Source of the DNA: a virus
Lineage: Duplodnaviria; Caudoviricetes
Direction: 5' to 3' (one strand)
Length of the DNA stretch: 59,412 nucleotides
IMG/VR virus record: IMGVR_UViG_3300024520_000077
Coordinates: 1-59,412 of that record
Shown: positions 628-41,914 of the stretch, one piece after another
Position numbering within the stretch: the first letter of the stretch is position 1
Layout: every line of letters begins with the position of its first letter
Translations under genes and position numbers: made by a program
Notes under the pieces: generated by a model
Databases searched by the model: none
What the model was told of the DNA's origin: nothing
The model's input: the letters and a program-made list of their open reading frames with translations, nothing else

Positions 628-3276
628 GAGGTCGACACCTCGATCCGTGATCCCGTGTGTTTTGCCGAGGACGATCATGCCGTCGGTGCCGGCGTCGAGG
701 AAGCGCGCATGAGGCACCGAGATCTCGTCGCCGATGAGGATGTCCTCCGGCCTGGCCATCAGGAGGTAGCTCCACCAGGTCCGCGGCACCTTGAGGAAGT
801 CGGCCAGCCTGCGCCCGAGCCGCGCTGCCTCGACCACGGTAGAGACGTTCGTCCGCCAGAACACCTCTCGGGCCTTGTCGAAGTTGCTCAGGACCTCCTC
901 GTCTCGGAAGACTTCGAGCTCGCTGAAATCCTGAGCGAGCCTTTTCCGCATCGACGGCGAGACCACGGCGGGGATCCTGCCCTCCGCTATAGGCGCGTAG
1001 TTCGGCGCGTAGAGGACGACCACGCGCCAGGCGGGCGGAAGGGTGTCCATCTCGACGATCGTCTCCTCCTCGACGAGAGAGGCGTCGAAGACGGTCCCAG
1101 AGCCGTCGGGCGGCCGGTAGTGTCCGGCCCGCACCTTCTCGACACCCGCCACCCGCGGCGCGTCCGTTGACCACGCGAAGTAGGACTCGAGGAGGGTCGA
1201 CAGCGCCTGCTGGTATGCCAGGTCGCCGCCTGATGGGATCCCCAGAGACCAGGGCGTATCCCGTTCGCCGACCGGTCCGACCCACGTCACGTCCGAGCCC
1301 GACGTGAAGAGGACGTCGTCGATCTCCGTCCCCTCGGCCCGGTCGCGCACGTCCTTGAGCCAAACCAGCGACGTTGGTGCCGTCGTCGTCACTGGCGCCG
1401 ACGTGGTGGCGTCGACCGTGAGTTGGCCGGTGAAGAGGTCGACCGTCGTCAAGGTGCCGTCGCCGATGTCGGTCACCTCGTCGGGGTTCGCGGCGGCGGG
1501 CATGTCGATCGTGATAGAGGCGGCGAGGTCCTCCGCGCTGAATCCGCCGACGGCTTGGTCGGCGCCGAGCTGGGCGTAAGGCCTGCCCTGTCCGTCGTTG
1601 ACGAAGACGAAGAGACCTCCCTCGATGCCGGTGCAGAACCAGATACCGTCCTCGGCATGGCCGCCGCTGATCTCGATCTCCGATCCCTGCCGGAGCTCCG
1701 TCCCCTCGGCGCTCACCAGGGGGCCGAAGGCCAGCCGCGCAAGGGCGGTCGATTCGATTGCCGAGCGGTTGAGGGAGCCGAGATTCGTCCGCAGGCGGAA
1801 CACGCCGGTCTCGGAGTATCCGATCCGGAGAGGAAGGCCGTCGAGGCGCGCTGCGTTGATCGCCGTCGATTGTGAGGACGCGCGGTAGATGGGTTTCGGC
1901 CCCTGGAGCCCGGCGCGGCTTTGAAAGGCGGGCGGGAAGTTGAAGACCGTGCTGAGAATGTAGGGCCAGGAGTCCCCGCGGGGCGATCCTTCTACAGTCG
2001 GCTTGTCGCCCTCCTCACTCTGGACGTAGTCGGCCGTGCCCTGGAAGGTAAGGTCGTTCTCGGCGCCGTCGAAGATGAGATCGTGACTTTCGGTCAGGAG
2101 AGCCCCTATAGAGACGGATCCCTCTAGGAATTTGTAGAGCTGCCACAGATCCCCTTGGCTCGCCCGGTCGTATTCCAGCGGCCCTGCCTGGCGCGTCCTC
2201 ATCTCCTCAGCGCCGATGCTGTCGTCGGAGAGCCAGAATTCCCAGATCCTGGCGCTGAGCGGGTTCACGTCCGGAGCGCCTCGACCGATGCGAAACACCG
2301 TCGCATCCGCCGCCGGGTCCTTCGTCGTCAAGACCGAGGAGACCTGCTCACCGTCGACGTAGAGGTAGAGGCGTGGGTGCGTCGCGGTGGCATCGTAGTC
2401 GACTCCGATCATGAAGGGCCGCGATGTGCCGATCGTGAAGTTGTAGTCAGGGAAGACGAAGGTCACCGCGCCGGCGCCGTCGTCGTGGACGACCTCGACC
2501 GTTGGGCCAGCGCCAGCGGCCCGGAAGCGGACGAAGAGCCGGGCGCTGTAGGTGAAGATCGTGGCGACCTCGACGCCAGTCGGCACCGCGAGAAGCGTCA
2601 TGATCGTCGAGAAGGCCCACGCTCCGGACGTCGGCACGAAGGCCGACGAGGTTACGTCGAGCCAGGCGTCGACCGCTCCACCACCACCCGTCGAGTCGAG
2701 TTCAATCCCATATCCGTGGCCCAGGTAGGGCCGGCGGACCAACTTCCGCTCTTGCGACCACCCCTCGGGAGATTCGGCTTGAAACTCCCAAGACTCCTGG
2801 CCGCGCTTCGCCGTCCGGAGCCGGCCGTAGAAGACCTCGTCGTAGTCGGAGAACTCGTAGGGGTTCCCGTCCCCGTCTCTCTCGGCGCCACGGTAGACGA
2901 CGACCTCGGAGCCGGTGAGCTGGTAATCTCGCCAGTCGTCGAGGGTTGAGCCGTCGGGCCCGCGCCGGTTGGAGACGGAGAAGGTGAAGCGATTCGCCTC
3001 AGTACCGCCCTTGATTCCCGTCCCTCGCGGGAGCTGGCCCACCTGGTTCGCGTTCGGCGGATTCCGAGCGCCAGTCGACTCCTCGAGCTGGTAGCCCGCC
3101 TCCAGCCGGGTCAGGAACATGTCGCCCTCGTCCCGCAGGTGGCGCGCATCTGACACCCTGAGTACCACGGTCACCGGCGCCAGGGCTACGCGGTCGACCT
3201 TGTGCGGCGTCGTAATCTCGATGGCCAGCGTTTTGGCCAGGTCGAGGCGGCGGAGGACGGAGGCGGGAATCGTCAT
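328..3276 (-). CDS. Large tail tip/hub protein with LamG-like (ConA lectin) domain and C-terminal fibronectin type III domain
   Basis: Start MTIPASV overlaps upstream stop (ATGA); LYLYVDGEQV...FRIG...LSARIWEFWL...LWQLYKF is LamG-like; APENL..TLTW..GYNLY..GLTNG..WTVRALN is FN3-like; lies downstream of tape measure. Confidence 0.75.
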   Translation of the reverse strand: MTIPASVLRRLDLAKTLAIEITTPHKVDRVALAPVTVVLRVSDARHLRDEGDMFLTRLEAGYQLEESTGARNPPNANQVGQLPRGTGIKGGTEANRFTFSVSNRRGPDGSTLDDWRDYQLTGSEVVVYRGAERDGDGNPYEFSDYDEVFYGRLRTAKRGQESWEFQAESPEGWSQERKLVRRPYLGHGYGIELDSTGGGGAVDAWLDVTSSAFVPTSGAWAFSTIMTLLAVPTGVEVATIFTYSARLFVRFRAAGAGPTVEVVHDDGAGAVTFVFPDYNFTIGTSRPFMIGVDYDATATHPRLYLYVDGEQVSSVLTTKDPAADATVFRIGRGAPDVNPLSARIWEFWLSDDSIGAEEMRTRQAGPLEYDRASQGDLWQLYKFLEGSVSIGALLTESHDLIFDGAENDLTFQGTADYVQSEEGDKPTVEGSPRGDSWPYILSTVFNFPPAFQSRAGLQGPKPIYRASSQSTAINAARLDGLPLRIGYSETGVFRLRTNLGSLNRSAIESTALARLAFGPLVSAEGTELRQGSEIEISGGHAEDGIWFCTGIEGGLFVFVNDGQGRPYAQLGADQAVGGFSAEDLAASITIDMPAAANPDEVTDIGDGTLTTVDLFTGQLTVDATTSAPVTTTAPTSLVWLKDVRDRAEGTEIDDVLFTSGSDVTWVGPVGERDTPWSLGIPSGGDLAYQQALSTLLESYFAWSTDAPRVAGVEKVRAGHYRPPDGSGTVFDASLVEEETIVEMDTLPPAWRVVVLYAPNYAPIAEGRIPAVVSPSMRKRLAQDFSELEVFRDEEVLSNFDKAREVFWRTNVSTVVEAARLGRRLADFLKVPRTWWSYLLMARPEDILIGDEISVPHARFLDAGTDGMIVLGKTHGITDRGVDLVVVSGSVFDIKAAPENLSVITGDTEATLTWDAINGAAGYNLYFSTLALPALVPGSPIAGTSFVHTGLTNGLLHTWTVRALNGNGDESADSSEASGTPAP

Positions 3277-3746
3277 GCCACTGCCCTCGTCTCGCGGTAG
3301 GCGGAGAATCTCGCGGTCGCGTCGTCCATCATGGTCTGGAATTCCGCCTTGGTGCCGCCCCACCGCCTGAACAGGTCGAGGCGTTCCTTCATTGTCAGGA
3401 TGACGCCACGCTCGACGATCTTGACGACGGCCGCGGACGATGCGCGCCAGGTCGGAAACGGGCCGTCCTCCGCGCTGGCCTCGACCGGTCCGACAAGGCG
3501 GACTCTGTACAGGTCGCCGCCGACACACTTCGAGGCGTGAAACCTGGCGTAGCGGCGGTTCGTCGTGGCGTAGACGTAGCCCGACGGCGTCGCCGGGTCG
3601 AGGTCGTGATCTTCGCCCTTCGCGTGCGCCTCACAGACCGGGCAGCCTTCGACGCAGCGGTGGCCCACCATGTCGGGCCGGATCGTGTCGCCCCGGTGAA
3701 GACCAGAGACCCCACCGTGCCACAGGAGTTTAACGCGTGCGTCCAT
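3273..3746 (-). CDS. Arr-like (rifampin ADP-ribosyltransferase fold) ADP-ribosyltransferase
   Basis: LWHGG..GL..GD.I.P, YVYATT, LYRV..VG.VE...D and (T)WR motifs parallel the Arr H-Y-acidic ART pattern. Confidence 0.65.
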   Translation of the reverse strand: MDARVKLLWHGGVSGLHRGDTIRPDMVGHRCVEGCPVCEAHAKGEDHDLDPATPSGYVYATTNRRYARFHASKCVGGDLYRVRLVGPVEASAEDGPFPTWRASSAAVVKIVERGVILTMKERLDLFRRWGGTKAEFQTMMDDATARFSAYRETRAVA

Positions 3747-3750
3747 CGTC

Positions 3751-4689
3751 CTATCCTATCGTCATCTGCTCAGGCGGCGCCACCGCGGTCGGCGGCTCGA
3801 AGAGGGTGCGCTGGGCGTACCGGTCGACGGCGATCCGCTGGGCTACGTCGATCCACAGCTCGCCGTCGTCCTGCCGCGCCAGGAGGTCACCGCCAAAGAA
3901 GCGCCGGCCGTGGTCGAGCGCGGCTATCAAGGACGTACCCGAGCCGAGGAAGGGGTCGACGACCAGGTCGCCGGGATTCGAGAAGCAGAGGACCAGGCGC
4001 GACGCCAGCCGGTAGGGGTAAGGGGCCGGGTGGCCAGCCGCCTCCAGGTCTACGCATCCGCTCTTGTTCATCCCCACGGCGCCGAGGTCGAAGAGGTCGG
4101 ATGGCATCTTCCATTCCGGCGGCAGGACGCTGGACGTCTGGCCTTTCTGGTCCCGTGCTAGCCTCCTCTTGCCGCCGGGCGAAGGGGTCGAAACGCTACG
4201 CCTGCGACCATTTTCGGCGCTCGTCCTTCGAACCGCGATGGCGGCCTTGTTGAGAGTCCTCTCTCCTGGCGTCGCGAGCCACAAAATGGGCTCCAGGGCT
4301 TTCCTGAAGCCGCGCTCGTAGTGCCCTGTGAACCCCTCCCGAACGTACGCCACCCAGGGGTCCGGAGCGATAAGGCCGAACCGGTCCTTCCAGTCAAGCA
4401 GGACGCGCATTGGCAAGTCCGACCGCTCGGTGTACCCGTCTCCGCGGTAGTCCCGCACGGGGCCGTCGAGGACGCAAAGACACTGACCGCCGTCGGGCCG
4501 GAGGGCTCGCTTGACGGCGTCGCCGAGACGCTGGTAGTCCTCGAGCTTCCAGTGGACCCCGGCGCCGTAGGTGCGCGCGTCCTCATAGGGCGGAGACATC
4601 AGGATCAGATCCACCTTGCCCTCGACCTCGGCCAGGGTGTCGGCGTAGTCGGCTTGGCGGAGGCCGACGAGCAGGTCGAGGGGGTTCAT
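3751..4689 (-). CDS. Beta-class amino DNA methyltransferase (SPPY, probably N4-cytosine), copy 1
   Basis: DLILMSPPY motif IV, HPAPYP, VVDPFLGSGT motif I. Confidence 0.92.
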   Translation of the reverse strand: MNPLDLLVGLRQADYADTLAEVEGKVDLILMSPPYEDARTYGAGVHWKLEDYQRLGDAVKRALRPDGGQCLCVLDGPVRDYRGDGYTERSDLPMRVLLDWKDRFGLIAPDPWVAYVREGFTGHYERGFRKALEPILWLATPGERTLNKAAIAVRRTSAENGRRRSVSTPSPGGKRRLARDQKGQTSSVLPPEWKMPSDLFDLGAVGMNKSGCVDLEAAGHPAPYPYRLASRLVLCFSNPGDLVVDPFLGSGTSLIAALDHGRRFFGGDLLARQDDGELWIDVAQRIAVDRYAQRTLFEPPTAVAPPEQMTIG

Positions 4690-12700: not shown

Positions 12701-13251
12701 TTTTTTTTTGCTTCAAGAACGACGGGGTCTTCGAACAGGTCGATCCCCTTTGCGGCGGATTCCAGCTCGTCCAGGAGGTCTGTCGAGACGTCGAAGTCCA
12801 ACGCCTTGAATGAGCGCTCGAACGCGGCGCGCACCTGCTCGGTGGTCGAGCCGCGCAGGTCGAGCTCTCCTGGGTCGCTTCCTCGCCAGGCGTAGACGCC
12901 CGTCCCGCCGCCGCGCAGGCACTCGAGGATGCACTTGACACGAGCGATGTTCTGGAACTCCAGAGGGATTCTCTCGAACCGACCGAACGAGCTGGCCCGC
13001 TGGCCCTTCTCCGCGTTCGCGATGCTGATCGCAGAGTTACGCGCCTTCTCGACGAAATGCTTCATCCGCCGGGAGCCGAGTGACACCATGCAGATTGCGA
13101 AAGGCCACTTCTCCGTCGGCTTGATCAGGACGCCGTCGACGCGGCGCGCCTGGTCGGCGTCGCCATGGTCGGAGACGTCCATCCTCGGTGGGGCCAGGAC
13201 GACGACGTCGGCCTCGGGCTCTTCGCCCTTCTTCTTCTTTCGCGTCGCCAT
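12526..13251 (-). CDS. Tail assembly chaperone (gpG-like)
   Basis: Immediately after major tail gene; contains EAKKN slippery run. Confidence 0.75.
   Translation of the reverse strand: MATRKKKKGEEPEADVVVLAPPRMDVSDHGDADQARRVDGVLIKPTEKWPFAICMVSLGSRRMKHFVEKARNSAISIANAEKGQRASSFGRFERIPLEFQNIARVKCILECLRGGGTGVYAWRGSDPGELDLRGSTTEQVRAAFERSFKALDFDVSTDLLDELESAAKGIDLFEDPVVLEAKKNGTVCGVPPRPARAESGILGTLLGGGEDLDPMALLAMLAKSKATMEAATLKVPESPTP
12700..12709 (-). other. Programmed -1 ribosomal frameshift site (A AAA AAC)
   Basis: Nine-A run in a GC-rich gene, X XXY YYZ pattern in the correct phase. Confidence 0.8.
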
Positions 13252-36867: not shown

Positions 36868-37527
36868 TCAGTTCACCGACACCTCGGCCCGGACGGCGCA
36901 TGACCTGCCGCCGATGCCAACGCCCGACGCCCTCGCCCACTCGGTGATCGTCACGCCGTCGAGAGTCCAGGTGAAGGTGGCCGTGCTGCCGCTCGCCGTG
37001 GCTCCGGAGCTCGCGAGCCAGGACCACGACTCGATGAGCTTCTCCCCGTCGGTAGCGACGAAGAGGTAGGTCCCTCCTGTCCTGTCCGAGATATCCACGA
37101 CGCAGGCCGGCTCGGGCAAATCGGCGACGGTGAAGGTGAGCGGCACCGTTCGGGGGGCGGCGCAGGACGTCCGTTCCTGGTCTGAGCAGACGATCACCGT
37201 CCCCAGGACGTCCATCGGGAGGTTCTCATGGAGGGGCCAGCCCACCAGGACCGACCTCTCAGTCGACTCCGACGGCGTCGCCGAGCCCGAGAACGTCCAG
37301 GCGTAGGAGGCGCCCTCGAGGCCGTCTACCGACCAGGTCGCCGAGCAGGTCGAGCGGTTGCACGATGCCCCGGCGACGGTGGCGTTGACGGTTGCCGGCG
37401 GAACCGGGTCAGGCGTAGGCTCTTCAACGGGCGGCGGTGCGGGCACCTGCACCTCGGTAATGGTCTCCTTCTCGCATCCGGCGAGAAGGATGGCGGCGAC
37501 AGCAATGGCCAAGATGCTCTTTTCCAT
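36868..37527 (-). CDS. Lipoprotein with PKD/Ig-like repeats
   Basis: LLAGC lipobox; Pro-rich linker; SYAWTF and IESWSW strands. Confidence 0.75.
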   Translation of the reverse strand: MEKSILAIAVAAILLAGCEKETITEVQVPAPPPVEEPTPDPVPPATVNATVAGASCNRSTCSATWSVDGLEGASYAWTFSGSATPSESTERSVLVGWPLHENLPMDVLGTVIVCSDQERTSCAAPRTVPLTFTVADLPEPACVVDISDRTGGTYLFVATDGEKLIESWSWLASSGATASGSTATFTWTLDGVTITEWARASGVGIGGRSCAVRAEVSVN

Positions 37528-37530
37528 GGC

Positions 37531-37995
37531 TCAGTCCTTGTATTTGGCCCGCAGGATGCGGCAGTAGAAATTGAAGACCTGGCCAGCGACGAACACCTGC
37601 TCGACGACGATCTCGGCCTTGACGATTTTGACGGTTGAGAATTCAGCGAAGGGACACAGAGGCTCGATCCGAGGATCGCACAGGTAGAGCCCAATCCCGC
37701 GGCCCGGGACATTCATGATGAAGAGCTGCTGTTCTCCCGATAGCGCGATCGTGCCGCGGGTCGAGGCCACGGCCTGAGGCGCCGTCATGCTCGCGCCCAT
37801 CTGCTGCGCCAAGCCGGCGGCGGCGTCCTCGGTGACGTCCTCGACGAGGACGCCGACGATGTCCTTCAGGATCTCGCCGATGAGGGGGTGGTTACGGGCC
37901 ACGTAGCGCTGCGCGATGGCTCCCATGGTCTGGCAACCGCTGAGCGCCAGGGCCGATGCCAGCAGTAGGACGGGTAAGGCCTTCTTCATCATCAT
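37531..37995 (-). CDS. Lipoprotein
   Basis: MKKALPVLLLASALALSGC lipobox. Confidence 0.75.
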   Translation of the reverse strand: MMMKKALPVLLLASALALSGCQTMGAIAQRYVARNHPLIGEILKDIVGVLVEDVTEDAAAGLAQQMGASMTAPQAVASTRGTIALSGEQQLFIMNVPGRGIGLYLCDPRIEPLCPFAEFSTVKIVKAEIVVEQVFVAGQVFNFYCRILRAKYKD

Positions 37996-38217
37996 GATAC
38001 TCCTCCAGGGTTAGCTGGCCGCCCGACGACGCCCCCGTGGAGGAGCTGCTAGAGCCTTGGCGACGCCGAGCGACCGAGAAGAGCGTACCACAGTCGCGAA
38101 CGAGTCGGGCCAAACGCGCGTCCCTCGCCGCTTCGGCCCTTGCCGCTTCGACGTTCTTCGCCTCGATCTCGGCCAGGTACTCGGCCCGACGCTCGCGGTA
38201 GAGCTTTCCAGGCGGGT

Positions 38218-40611
38218 TCACGAGAAGAGACTCATCTGTGGATCTGGCGGCTTCGCGGAGTCCGGGGCGGTACCCCAGCCGCGGAGCATGTCGAGCGCCG
38301 GCCCTGGCCCCATCTCCGCGATCCGCCGGCGCCACCACGCCACCCGCGCCAGGGCGAGCTCACACATTTGTTCACTGCTTTCGATCGCTACGATTCGGCG
38401 CCACCCCGCCATCATGGCGGCGATGATCTCCGAGCCCGACCCGGCGAAGGGGATCAGGATCACCGGCTCGACGCCGTCGACCGTGGGCTGTAGGAGGAGC
38501 TTCGCCAGGTGGCTTCCGCCGTCGATGGCCTTGACGGCAAGTCCAGGATTGCCCCGGCAGCGTCCGGACTCGCGGGCCGCGTCGAGGAAGGCGGTAGCGT
38601 CTTCGTGGTCGACGTCGATCTCGCCTTCGCCGGGCCGTTTGTAGTGGTAATTACCCGGGCGGCCCAAATTGGCGAGCAAAGTTCCCCTAAGTGCTGGCTT
38701 GGCGCGTGGCTTCCGGTACCCCTCCGCCATCATCTCCCGATACCTCTCCGAGCCCATCGCCCGTGCCACGTCGTCGGCCCCACGCTGCTCGAAGGCGTCC
38801 TCGTCGACGAGGAGCCACCCGTCGTCGTGGTCGGCGTCGCGGATCCATAGGAGGTGCTCGGCGCCAGTGTGGCGCTCTGCGGCGGAGGCGCGGCCCTGGT
38901 AGTACACGCGGGCAGTACTTGGCCTCGCGTCCGTCTCGCCGAAGCGGTGGGCGGAGTGCGACGGCATGTTACCGTAGACCGGCGACGAAGACGCGTTGAT
39001 TGGCACGCGCTCACGCTTTCCGCCAGCGCTGTGTACGCCCTTCGCCCGGCCCTGCTCGTCGATCGCCGCCACAGGGCACCCATCCGCGCACCAGCCGGCC
39101 CCGCAGGTCGTCAAATGCTCGAAGATGACGGTGGACGGGTATCGGCCGAGGCTGTCTTTCGATGCATCCCGGGGCTTATGGCCCACTTTCGGGAGGTATG
39201 AAACGCTACTCCCCACTCGCTCTCTACCTCGACAATTCCGCTCATGGTCCGGCCCGCTCGGAATCCGCCCGCCGCCGACGTTGTACCCGCCCGTACCCCA
39301 CCGCTCAGCCACCTCCGCCCCGGTGCCGTCGAGGGGCTTGCGGGCGGCGAGGATGATCTCCTTGGAGTCCTTCAGCGCCGTGGCGTGGTCGTCGAAGAGG
39401 GCGGCGAGGGGCGAGGCCGGGGCGGTGATCGGCGACGGCTCATGAGCTAGCCCTCGAGCGTGATCGTAGTGCATGGAGCGCGACAACTGCGGCCGGGTCG
39501 CCGCCGCTTTGGTCACCTCCCGCTCGAGCCCCGCCGCCTTGTCGATCGCCTTCCCCGTGTTGGCCCCGAGCGCCATCGCGCCCCCGTGGATCCGCACGAT
39601 CGAGGGGAGCATGCGGAAGCCCGCCAGCTCTTGCGAGATCGCCGCCCAGTGGGACGCGCGGCCCTGGTAGGACAGGTGGATCGCCCCGGGGCGGAGGACG
39701 CGGAGGATCTCGCGATTGAGTCGAGGAGAGGGAACTAAGTTGTCCCACGGACGATTAAGCATACCACCCTGTGCTATACTGGGACGAAACAACCCGGAGG
39801 CTTTCCCGTGGCACAAAAGATCGAACGAACATGTCCCGTCTGCTCGACGACCTACCTTGCGGACCCCGGCCGGCTCAAGTGGGGCCGAGAGACCACCTGC
39901 TCGCGGGCCTGCTCCTACCGCTTTCGCGGCGATCAAAAGAGGAGCGCCGTCAGTCTTGAATGCTCCCTTTGCGGGAAGGAGTTCAAGCGCTGGCCGTCCC
40001 ACGCTGCGCGCGCAGAGTACGGCTGGCACTTTTGCTCCCGCGCCTGCAAAACCGCCGGCTGGCGGCTCGGCATGTTCACTATGGTCCGGCATGTGAAGTT
40101 CAACAAGCTGACACGAGAAGGGCGCACCTCGCTGCGCCGCGTGGGTGCGGAGGTCTACGCGTCTGGAAGCCTCGGTTTCCCGGAGGATGAACTGGCAACC
40201 GTTGAGCTTCTCCAGCGTGCCAGGGTGCCATTCATCCATCAACACATCTTCGAGGCGGGCGAGGACGTTTTCGTCGTCGACTTCTACTTCGCCGACCGGA
40301 ATCTCGTCATGGAAATCGACGGCTCCGGCCATCGACGAGACCCCGGGCAGCGTGCAAAGGATGCGAAGCGGGACAAGATCCTCGCGGATGCCGGGATCGA
40401 GGTCGTCCGAATCACCAACGAAGGGCCAGCGGATGAGGTCGCGAAGCGAGTCCTCGCCCATCTCATAGGTCCATAGGTCGATGAGCGCTTTCGGGTCTCG
40501 AAGGTCCGACAAAGCGTACGGCGGATCGCTCAGCCCCCCGTGGAACGTGTGCTCGTCGAATTCGTCCAGGGCGTCGGGCAGGGTGCCGCAGATGATGCGG
40601 ACGTCGATCAC
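38218..40611 (-). CDS. Beta-class adenine DNA methyltransferase (DPPY) with a roughly 235-codon in-frame insertion
   Basis: GTGA-coupled start VIDVRIICG; SDPPY; after insert WD.LVP...ILRVLRPG, EIILAARKPL.GT...WGTGG.N, GRYP, IPFAGSGS. Confidence 0.88.
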   Translation of the reverse strand: MIDVRIICGTLPDALDEFDEHTFHGGLSDPPYALSDLRDPKALIDLWTYEMGEDSLRDLIRWPFVGDSDDLDPGIREDLVPLRILCTLPGVSSMAGAVDFHDEIPVGEVEVDDENVLARLEDVLMDEWHPGTLEKLNGCQFILRETEASRRVDLRTHAAQRGAPFSCQLVELHMPDHSEHAEPPAGGFAGAGAKVPAVLCARSVGRPALELLPAKGAFKTDGAPLLIAAKAVGAGPRAGGLSAPLEPAGVRKVGRRADGTCSFDLLCHGKASGLFRPSIAQGGMLNRPWDNLVPSPRLNREILRVLRPGAIHLSYQGRASHWAAISQELAGFRMLPSIVRIHGGAMALGANTGKAIDKAAGLEREVTKAAATRPQLSRSMHYDHARGLAHEPSPITAPASPLAALFDDHATALKDSKEIILAARKPLDGTGAEVAERWGTGGYNVGGGRIPSGPDHERNCRGRERVGSSVSYLPKVGHKPRDASKDSLGRYPSTVIFEHLTTCGAGWCADGCPVAAIDEQGRAKGVHSAGGKRERVPINASSSPVYGNMPSHSAHRFGETDARPSTARVYYQGRASAAERHTGAEHLLWIRDADHDDGWLLVDEDAFEQRGADDVARAMGSERYREMMAEGYRKPRAKPALRGTLLANLGRPGNYHYKRPGEGEIDVDHEDATAFLDAARESGRCRGNPGLAVKAIDGGSHLAKLLLQPTVDGVEPVILIPFAGSGSEIIAAMMAGWRRIVAIESSEQMCELALARVAWWRRRIAEMGPGPALDMLRGWGTAPDSAKPPDPQMSLFS
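39772..39800 (+). promoter_or_regulatory. Extended -10 promoter and RBS for the nested endonuclease
   Basis: TGCTATACT at 39772-39780; GGAGG at 39796-39800; GTG at 39808. Confidence 0.7.
39808..40476 (+). CDS. Zn-finger plus DUF559/Vsr-like (EDxHD-type) endonuclease, antisense inside the MTase gene
   Basis: Two CxxC...CSRAC units; FVVDFY...LVMEIDGSGH...DAKRD.IL..AGIEVVRI. Confidence 0.9.
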   Translation: MAQKIERTCPVCSTTYLADPGRLKWGRETTCSRACSYRFRGDQKRSAVSLECSLCGKEFKRWPSHAARAEYGWHFCSRACKTAGWRLGMFTMVRHVKFNKLTREGRTSLRRVGAEVYASGSLGFPEDELATVELLQRARVPFIHQHIFEAGEDVFVVDFYFADRNLVMEIDGSGHRRDPGQRAKDAKRDKILADAGIEVVRITNEGPADEVAKRVLAHLIGP

Positions 40612-41149
40612 TTGCGCCGCTCTTCGGCCTGCCGGCGCTCTTCGCCGGTCTCCGGGAAGTCCAGGGTCCCGAAAATGGTCTCGCCTTGCCCGTACATCTT
40701 GACCAGCCACCGCGTCAGGTCGTGCGCCGACGTCCTAGAGCCGGAGTAGCGCTCCATGGCGGCCTCGAGGTCGGCAGTGGGTATCGTGACTCGCTTCGTG
40801 TCGGTGCGGTTCACGACGAAGCCTCGTTTTCGTCTTTGGCCGCTCGCTTCTCGTCCGCGCCGGCCTGGGCGATCTTGACCCTTGACGCTGCCGAGAACGC
40901 CGCCATGAGGACCCGATCCGCTTCGCATATGATCCCTTTCCAGCACGACTGACCCATGGCGTCGACGTCGAGATACTCAAGATCAAGGCTCGCGCTCGCG
41001 AGCCCATCCTTGATTGGCTTGAAGTTCCAGGCCACGATCCTGTACCTCGGCGCTTCGTGGCCTGCGTGGCCCTCCCAGAGACTTACAGGCCCCGAAGGCA
41101 TGTCGCTCTCCGCGGTGTAATAGGTGAATCCATCAAGCGTCATCTCCAA
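40608..41149 (-). other. Two coupled hypothetical ORFs (40811-41149, 40608-40814) leading the MTase operon
   Basis: AAAGGAG RBS; GTGA overlaps. Confidence 0.55.
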
Positions 41150-41184
41150 CTCCTTTCGCCGTCCGAGAGTGGAGCGGCGGATCC

Positions 41185-41214
41185 ATCCTATCGCGCCACG
41201 GACGCGGCTGTCAA
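41185..41214 (-). promoter_or_regulatory. Sigma70-type promoter
   Basis: TTGACA-18-TAGGAT. Confidence 0.7.
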
Positions 41215-41368
41215 GGCTTTCTGGTTTCCGCGCGCCATGCTGGGATTTACGACAAGGCAGAGAGTTACCCCGCCCGCCGTCCCGAGGGTAGCACGGGCGT
41301 CAAGCGCGGCCCTGCTCACTTACTGCGCACCCTCGTGCAAGCGTCGGAGCGTAGCGACGTGAGCGCAG

Positions 41369-41914
41369 CTACCGCCCGAGCTTGTCGAAGATCGGGCCGA
41401 GTACCCCCGCGGCCTTGTCGGACAGTAGGCCGTCTCCCTTCACCTTGATCTCCGCTGGCCTGTTCCAGCCCTGGAGCTTGGCGAGCTGCGCCTCGACCAC
41501 CGCCCGGGCTTCGAGTTTCAGCTTCACTTTCTCGATCAGGGTCCCGTCCTCGGTGTGGCGCTGCTCGAAAGTGACCTCGGAAACGAGCCGCTTCACCTCC
41601 CGCGGGAGCGCCCTCCAGGCCTCCGGGCTCATCTCGAGGCCGTCCGGGAACAGGTCGGCCAGGTTGCCAGTGGCGTACCCCGTCAGGCGATCGACGGATT
41701 CCTGGCGCTGCGTCTCCGTATCGTCGCGGATCTCGGCCTTCCGGTAGGCGATGGCCTCCCGTCGCTTGTGCGCCAGCTGCCCCGGCGCGAAAGGCGACTT
41801 CCCGGTGTAGCCGGCCTTTCTGTAGGCGTCGGTCTGACTCATTCCGCCGACGTGGTAGTCGATGAAGAGCTGCGCCCGGGGAGGGGCTTTATCGTACTGT
41901 GCCTTTCCGTCCAT
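41369..41914 (-). CDS. terS: Terminase small subunit
   Basis: FIDY....SQTDAYRKAGY HTH; LTGYATGNLADLF...LP..VKRLVSEV...VKLKL...LAKLQG. Confidence 0.85.
   Translation of the reverse strand: MDGKAQYDKAPPRAQLFIDYHVGGMSQTDAYRKAGYTGKSPFAPGQLAHKRREAIAYRKAEIRDDTETQRQESVDRLTGYATGNLADLFPDGLEMSPEAWRALPREVKRLVSEVTFEQRHTEDGTLIEKVKLKLEARAVVEAQLAKLQGWNRPAEIKVKGDGLLSDKAAGVLGPIFDKLGR

Follow-up and report, generated by a model that had tools for sequence, protein, structure and literature searches.

How can a nuclease gene lie in the middle of a conserved protein-coding gene that is still open from end to end? Homing endonucleases are thought to persist inside genes by way of self-splicing introns or inteins. 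The question is raised by a viral contig from IMG/VR (IMGVR_UViG_3300024520_000077; 59,412 bp, analysed over its whole length and called the window below), in which a nuclease gene occupies one strand (39808..40476, plus) and an unbroken DNA methyltransferase frame the other (38218..40710, minus). We consider it probable that this is a homing-type element made of a single nuclease gene, which sits antisense and codon-aligned in a phage beta-class methylase and is translated straight through as a tolerated loop. The original prediction, made from the letters of the stretch alone, had proposed a mobile element of this sort that needs no splicing, and the comparison of related loci supports it: the nuclease is nested in a methylase in 33 of 61 loci, and every nested copy is codon-aligned and stop-free. 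The accompanying idea of survival without splicing is likewise supported, but it is not without precedent, the ShiLan domain of actinobacteriophage methylases having already been published (PMC9957025, PMC11855218).

Anatomy of the insertion

The read-through methyltransferase ORF (open reading frame), which is also a public gene call (P0001), extends on the minus strand over 38218..40611 and encodes 797 aa from a GTG at 40611, the position at which the aligned homologues begin; counted from the first GTG of the open frame, the protein has 830 aa. Its N-terminal part (40471..40611, minus) carries DPPY (motif IV, 40516-40527) and ends at an invariant Trp, and its C-terminal part (38218..39765, minus; 515 aa) is in phase with it. 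The 235 stop-free codons between the two (39766..40470, minus), residues 81-315, have no counterpart in any of the 16 aligned homologues (the 13 closest and three phage methylases), in which the invariant Trp and GML are separated by about ten residues (LDGxEGxQxA) in place of the insert. After the insert the methylase picks up in phase at GGMLNRPWD, the residue following the insert being Gly. The predicted interruption just past motif IV and the stop-free, in-phase continuation of the methylase frame were thus both borne out, with the ORF intact over 38218..40710.

The insert is, as had also been proposed, nearly all nuclease gene: the nuclease ORF leaves just 42 nt (39766-39807) uncovered at one end of the insert and nothing at the other. 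Codon boundaries coincide exactly in the two frames ((40710-39810) mod 3 = 0), again as described. Where the genes abut, the last Pro codon of the nuclease and its TAG stop are the reverse complement of the Leu-Trp codons of the methylase (40471-40476); at the related locus L012 the nuclease stop likewise doubles as a host Leu codon. The 8-bp tandem repeat said to mark this edge is present (CATAGGTC twice, 40464..40479, across the nuclease 3' end and the methylase junction). It is one of three exact tandem 8-mers in the window, the others lying at 12991 and 50625, and none of five relatives has such a repeat at the junction; we therefore reject it as a feature of the family.

The recognisable intron that the original prediction had set against its own reading was not found: an Rfam scan of 37500-41500 on both strands returned no family at gathering score and no intron family at E<=10 (four weak hits). 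With only the 42 nt and 0 nt mentioned above outside the nuclease ORF, we reject an intron. An intein is rejected as well. Pfam matches nothing in the insert peptide at E<=10, and hence no Hint domain; Gly follows the insert; and the ratio of nonsynonymous to synonymous substitution rates (dN/dS) of the insert peptide is about 1 (see below). The claim that the locus has neither intein termini nor room for a ribozyme stands on these null scans and on the size of the insert ends.

The nuclease gene

The nuclease (222 aa, GTG start at 39808) combines two zinc ribbons with a DUF559/Vsr-like domain. Pfam assigns DUF559 with 37.9 bits against a cut-off (gathering score) of 20.6, and does not assign HNH; PHROG matches named "HNH endonuclease" cover either the zinc-ribbon part or the DUF559-type region, and the zinc-ribbon half is common to HNH endonucleases (P0123). 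Among cluster representatives the nuclease has 1446 relatives at E<=1e-3, seven of them at E<1e-30 and with the same architecture. The columns invariant in 12 relatives are kept in the window: the four Cys of the second ribbon, D158, E169 and D185. The EDxHD family is defined by its E-D-x-H-D motif, from which the window residues (D158 ... E169-I-D171-G-S-G-H175) differ in spacing. An AlphaFold2 (AF2) model of the nuclease has a mean predicted local distance difference test (pLDDT) score of 85, and its top Foldseek match is 3R3P, the catalytic domain of I-Bth0305I (probability 1.00, template modelling score 0.69 on the target, 96 columns), followed by the Vsr structures 1VSR (probability 1.00) and 1CW0; the E-values reach only about 3e-3, with no match at E<=0.001. 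A sequence search of the nuclease against the PDB gave nothing significant. The resemblance to I-Bth0305I that had been noticed in the sequence is thus recovered at the level of fold.

GC content at third codon positions is 0.75 in the plus-strand nuclease frame, with the pattern mirrored in the minus frame. Because GC by codon position points to the plus strand, the nuclease ORF is, on codon composition, the gene that shaped the DNA of the insert. Upstream of it, an extended -10-like box, TGCTATACT, can be read by eye at 39772..39780 (plus), and a Shine-Dalgarno (SD) sequence, GGAGG, stands at 39796..39800 (plus) ahead of the GTG at 39808. At L012, whose nuclease is 39% identical, the same box TGCTATACT recurs at the same spacing, and about half of 24 lineages have a comparable -10-like box with an SD after it. 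The proposal that the nuclease has its own extended -10 and ribosome-binding site (RBS) therefore holds insofar as both can be read, and is weakened by a sigma-70 two-hexamer scan that finds no promoter.

Protein databases probably lack most nucleases of this kind, because gene callers report just the long host ORF. The nuclease ORF 39808-40476 is absent from the called proteins of a 5.8-billion-protein collection, in which the best match, P0121, is 65% identical and lies on a 1.8-kb contig; the 797-aa read-through ORF, unlike the nuclease, is present among the called proteins. A single-protein locus search of IMG/VR gave no matches. In GenBank phages, tblastn with the window nuclease matched only LR756501.1 and LR756503.1, two copies of an uncultured 735-kb phage record (361769-362383; 26% identity over nuclease residues 31-220, E 3e-9), and the nucleases of L045 and L040, used as queries for antisense examples in cultured phages, gave no matches.

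Recurrence and codon avoidance

A pattern search built from an alignment of nine nucleases yielded 51 loci in IMG/VR and 10 in genome contigs. The nuclease is nested antisense inside a methylase ORF in 29 of the former and 4 of the latter, always between DPPY and GFMGKxWD in the same frame, in host ORFs of 430-1064 aa. These nested loci represent 23 lineages at <95% identity and four clades at 50%. The four hosts tested for PF01555 were all positive (E 1e-19 to 1e-30). In each of the 33 nested loci the frames are codon-aligned and the nuclease contains not one TTA, CTA or TCA codon, the codons whose complements would stop the host frame, and the remaining two antisense frames are always short.

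In the window alone, such an arrangement could have arisen by chance. TTA, CTA and TCA together make up 0.9% of the 13,069 codons in the window ORFs, which gives a probability of 0.09-0.19 for an open aligned antisense frame, or about 3-6% once the one-in-three chance of the phase is included. The caution voiced at the outset, that codon-aligned antisense frames are often open in GC-rich DNA, was well placed for this locus, which on its own is only suggestive; the related loci carry the case. The nested set spans loci of 37%, 48% and 50% GC, and the stop-free loci at 37-48% GC lead us to reject a GC-rich accident. Computed from the codon usage of flanking ORFs, the expected probability of zero TTA, CTA or TCA codons is 1e-9 for L014 (37% GC), 1.8e-5 for L021, 1.5e-4 for L026 and 2.7e-4 for L012, and as high as 0.35 where GC is high; summed over lineages, the log10 probability is -46 on the assumption that the lineages are independent, which holds only in part. 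A reading of the frame as chance or pseudogene, plausible for the window, is therefore rejected at the level of the family. Among the 22 non-nested IMG/VR relatives, by comparison, 18 carry 1-11 of these codons, and at least three in 16 cases; L019, L046 and L057 carry none, L048 and L060 one each. This comparative evidence argues that the open host frame is itself under selection, through codon avoidance even in AT-rich genomes.

The non-nested relatives occupy several kinds of place. In L048 the nuclease is divergent from an intact methylase gene and in L035 it lies upstream of one; in L019, L046 and L057 it stands between methylase pieces, and others are found in unrelated contexts, L031, L043, L050, L054 and L058-L060 having no methylase in their surroundings at all. 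As to stops in homologous inserts, about which the original prediction had asked, all 33 nested inserts are stop-free. In L019 (2288-4537), L046 (1378-3795) and L057 (458-4269), all on the minus strand, the antisense frame is open across the nuclease and stops just beyond it, and the FMGK Met is the start of a separate downstream methylase ORF. These three look like split-gene versions of the same element.

Selection on the two frames

The nuclease frame has dN/dS values of 0.15-0.37 in the eight nested pairs with estimable dS, and the methylase-frame reading of the insert has values of 0.70-1.19 in nine of ten pairs. By these ratios the nuclease frame is under purifying selection, and the insert as read in the methylase frame evolves neutrally. 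Because its dN/dS is near neutral, the insert peptide would seem to be a passenger that is constrained only not to stop, and its neutral evolution also argues against a hidden splicing domain.

The C-terminal parts of nested hosts, in turn, have dN/dS values of 0.13-0.30, which may largely predate the invasion. DPPY is present in 28 of 28 nested hosts, GFMGKxWD in 27, RVLKPG in 28, an HPTxKP-type motif in 21 and FxGSG in 19; these counts used strict patterns and are lower bounds.

Mobility of the element

In five loci (L015-L018 and L020) the nucleases are at least 98% identical, and the C-terminal parts of their hosts are only 70-82% identical. L015 and L020 share one common block of 1153 bp at 97% identity, which consists of the element with flanks of about 290 and 85 bp; outside this block, identity in the methylase falls to 66-77% and the two contigs do not align elsewhere. 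The element has thus moved horizontally, and a near-identical block that spans the element plus short flanks, in divergent methylases on otherwise unrelated contigs, indicates homing.

Empty sites seem to exist among relatives of the window itself. In two seawater metagenome runs that contain window sequence, single contigs join position 39720 to 40515 (sides of 66 and 63); judged from the two sides by which the joint is known, these contigs are relatives without the element. The unusually AT-rich methylase codons that had been reported for the other edge are visible as a run of A/T-ending codons, GGMLNRPWDNLVPSPRLN, at 39715..39765 (minus), and include a W-to-N change at a conserved Trp. This tract is probably a co-converted flank, a reading that fits because the empty-site contigs stop aligning at 39720.

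A model for read-through

We propose that the element is a lone nuclease gene that brings along a promoter-like box and a ribosome-binding site and lies backwards in a conserved stretch of the methylase. Because both frames share codon boundaries, a nuclease free of TTA, CTA and TCA, each of which has synonymous alternatives, would suffice to keep the host frame open, and the nuclease stop codon would double as a host Leu codon. Ribosomes on the methylase mRNA would then run on through the element and reach the downstream motifs in phase; their product would be a methylase in which 235 residues form a loop, probably unstructured, just past motif IV. Neither RNA nor protein splicing would be necessary. 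The antisense orientation may allow the nuclease to retain its own start, stop, promoter-like box and RBS, and codon alignment would cut its cost to three avoidable codons. The comparisons establish the anatomy of the element, its recurrence, the avoidance of codons, the frame on which selection acts and the horizontal movement; from them we infer that the full-length protein is produced and retains DNA methylation activity, and that alleles without the element are cleaved by the nuclease.

More generally, we lean, with slightly more confidence than doubt, towards the view that antisense, codon-aligned homing endonuclease genes are a distinct and widespread third way of living inside protein genes, beside introns and inteins. 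Its marks would be three avoided codons, a host Leu or Ser codon serving as the nuclease stop, signals of the nuclease's own, a host that works with a freely evolving loop of 230-300 residues, and nucleases that are largely missing from protein databases. The arrangement would extend the idea of splicing-free persistence, so far represented by ShiLan in a few mycobacteriophages, to a second and mechanistically simpler design, of which IMG/VR viral contigs have at least 23 lineages and genome contigs further nested copies (metagenome-assembled genomes). It would also mark a blind spot of annotation, with nested nucleases of this kind systematically under-annotated. For protein engineering, the loop site beside motif IV appears, from the sequences, to tolerate hundreds of residues.

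Comparison with known systems

The closest known system is the ShiLan domain, a 202-aa insertion with a disjunct distribution in actinobacteriophage methylases (PMC9957025, 2023). According to a later account, the insertion is stop-free in the host frame, shows no intron or intein features, is predicted by AlphaFold as a loop, and contains, on the same strand but in a different frame, a hidden HNH endonuclease, for which the authors found no RBS; that account includes no experiments (PMC11855218). The likeness to the window is considerable: the host methylases belong to the same family (DPPYxLGFMGKKWD ... HPTVKP ... FxGSG), the insertion is stop-free, in phase and missing from the closest homologues, it conceals a zinc-finger endonuclease ORF without a detectable intron or intein, its AlphaFold prediction is poor and loop-like, and its disjunct distribution implies homing. 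The differences concern the nuclease and the site. The ShiLan endonuclease is of the HNH type and is encoded after GFPKS, in a shifted frame on the host's own strand, whereas the window nuclease is DUF559/Vsr-like, antisense and codon-aligned, and lies between DPPY and GFMGK; and where no RBS was found for the former, the latter has its own -10-like box and SD. A promoter-like box and RBS on the other strand may offer an answer to the ShiLan authors' question of how a hidden nuclease is expressed. The words antisense, reverse, opposite and complement do not occur in PMC11855218 (2025), and we found no report of the antisense in-frame form in the literature searched, to which supplements that may hold relevant surveys did not belong. 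The principle, then, is already published and in the same methylase family; what is new, as far as we found, is the antisense, codon-aligned DUF559-type form, its prevalence, and the signature of codon avoidance.

StellaBean gp97/gp98 confirmed the ShiLan layout, with the endonuclease on the same strand at an offset of 1 and the insertion after GFPKS. One further case of this layout and a similar match came to light. In Escherichia phage BUCT618 (OM735461.1) an HNH-like ORF (1501-2040; L062) lies on the same strand at an offset of 2 in a 620-aa methylase gene (1076-2938), and its position after the GFPKS motif identifies it, by sequence, as a ShiLan-type insertion in a coliphage. In Gordonia phage Clown (MT771343.1) a zinc-ribbon/HNH-like match (2001-2759; L064), on the same strand and one base out of frame, lies inside a 920-aa gene for the terminase large subunit (1175-3934; 27% identity over 98% of P0123, E 6e-4), which suggests a ShiLan-type hidden endonuclease in a host that is not a methylase.

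Other comparisons are more distant. The window nuclease shares its fold with I-Bth0305I and Vsr (3R3P, 1VSR, 1CW0) and its Pfam family with DUF559 nucleases, but relatives of I-Bth0305I are reported from introns or inteins, and the window nuclease has no such carrier. Some free-standing homing endonucleases interrupt their target gene or lie next to it, as mobE does in the nrd genes of T4-like phages. They have parallels in those relatives of the nuclease that lie beside intact methylases (L048, L035) or between methylase pieces (L019, L046, L057), and in the co-conversion-like flanks of the block shared by L015 and L020; in the window and the 33 nested loci, in contrast, the host gene is unsplit and forms one open frame. 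Nuclear group I introns in rDNA reportedly carry antisense homing endonuclease genes within self-splicing ribozymes; the strand opposite the host is the same, but there a ribozyme surrounds the gene and here an open protein-coding frame does. Rickettsia palindromic elements, short non-coding repeats that lie in frame in protein genes, resemble the insert as selfish DNA tolerated in the form of additional translated residues, and differ in having no nuclease gene.

Weighing the alternatives

Several observations weigh against translation through the element into a working methylase. The insert lies about 15 residues past the catalytic DPPY loop, where a big loop might do harm. The window methylase deviates at 8 of 79 columns invariant in its 13 homologues, radically so in W332N, P452I and H723G, and the host dN/dS may, as said, reflect the time before the invasion. 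The split arrangements in L019, L046 and L057, with their stop right after the element, indicate that read-through is not the sole arrangement. One pair of loci, L033 and L038, departs from the pattern of selection, with dN/dS values of 0.37 and 0.39, about equal in both frames. In the AF2 model of the read-through protein the insert has pLDDT values of 21-46 against 80-95 in the core segments, which is weak evidence for a loop: the alignment rows cover none of the insert and the model is poor elsewhere (whole-model mean 50). The -10-like box was read by eye only, the promoter scan having failed to find it; none of the runs listed for the stretch is an RNA run, and the contigs that bear the joint are all DNA. 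The 3-6% chance of an open frame in the window by itself belongs here as well.

It is unlikely, in our estimate, that the methylase is dead or dispensable and that its frame stays open only so that ribosomes cover the mRNA, sparing it premature termination and the phage genes downstream of it polarity, or by chance in the window. That chance, the three radical changes and a weak joint (38359 to 40614, side 21), which suggests relatives without the whole gene, would fit this explanation, and the ShiLan authors call the methylase not essential (PMC11855218). Yet nested hosts in 28 lineages keep the methylase motifs, their C-terminal parts have the low dN/dS values given above, the deviations in the window are no more frequent than in insert-free outliers, and pure chance is excluded at the level of the family. 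We give still less credence to removal of the insert by an unrecognised process, be it a novel kind of ribozyme that overlaps the antisense gene, bypass by ribosomes over a long range or excision from the protein in a non-canonical way. The missing known signatures do leave room for novel ones, an option that the ShiLan authors also leave open (PMC11855218). Removal of RNA or bypass, however, would not explain why 33 of 33 nested loci avoid stops and are codon-aligned, a neutrally evolving peptide cannot hold a conserved splicing domain, Rfam and Pfam signals are absent, and the nuclease ORF leaves 42 nt at one insert end and none at the other.

That the methylase works in two pieces is quite doubtful. 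A DPPY fragment and a C-terminal body would arise through a restart at the Met of GGM/FMGK, or through clipping of the disordered loop, and then associate; the downstream methylase ORF starts exactly at the FMGK Met in L019, L034, L041, L046 and L057, three of these (L019, L046 and L057) have the stop right after the element, and the window has an ATG at that Met with a purine-rich AGGGTGG before it. In the 33 stop-free nested loci, though, a restart is unneeded, the putative ribosome site of the window is very closely spaced, and association of the fragments is purely hypothetical. Hardly credible to us is a module in which nuclease and methylase form a restriction-modification-like pair or regulate each other through antisense RNA, instead of being homing element and target. 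The nuclease family is strongly tied to this methylase family, nested or adjacent, and the internal promoter-like box implies convergent transcription; but near-identical elements with sharp identity boundaries sit in divergent methylases, the element is present or absent among relatives, some relatives (L031, L043, L050, L054, L058-L060) have methylase-free contexts, and the best fold match is a homing endonuclease.

The host methylase

A Pfam scan of the 830-aa window methylase and its parts gave no match, PF01555 included, and a PHROGs scan recognised the motif I region and nothing else. Foldseek with the model of the read-through protein returned nothing at E<=0.001 and only weak matches to S-adenosylmethionine (SAM)-dependent methyltransferases and beta-class DNA methylases. 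The alignments are more telling. A large protein search found 123 methylase relatives, the distant ones among which (E 8e-36 onwards) carry PF01555, and tblastn matched residues ~316-615 of the window protein to 254 phage records annotated as DNA methylases. The 13 closest homologues (493-677 aa) are 43-48% identical to the window protein and the three aligned phage methylases 31-33%; the C-terminal part is 46% identical to insert-free homologues across 100% of its length. The motif order in the alignments is that of the beta class, with DPPY (IV) near the N-terminus and FAGSGS (FxGSG, I) near the C-terminus, and the alignments also set apart a subfamily of its own (RIHGGAMALG, NPHLAVKA), most motifs of which are kept in the window. 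By homology and motif order, the window ORF is a beta-class (N6/N4) DNA methyltransferase despite the null Pfam scan. Its radical changes notwithstanding, the gene is not obviously decaying, because insert-free outliers deviate as much or more (P0008 at 9 of 80 and P0014 at 21 of 92 columns).

Two minor observations concern the methylase gene as a whole. One contig (run X1) joins window position 38359 to 40614 and so skips almost exactly the entire gene; the shorter side of this joint measures 21 letters, which makes it a weak one, and a relative without the gene is possible. The homologue P0012 (677 aa, on a 60,315-bp contig from the Joint Genome Institute, JGI) lacks the insert of the window; at a different site (alignment columns ~572-810), its Cys-rich HxxGCGADWC...GDSGT segment is replaced by a stretch of low complexity, about 190 aa long. 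This stretch may be a second read-through element.

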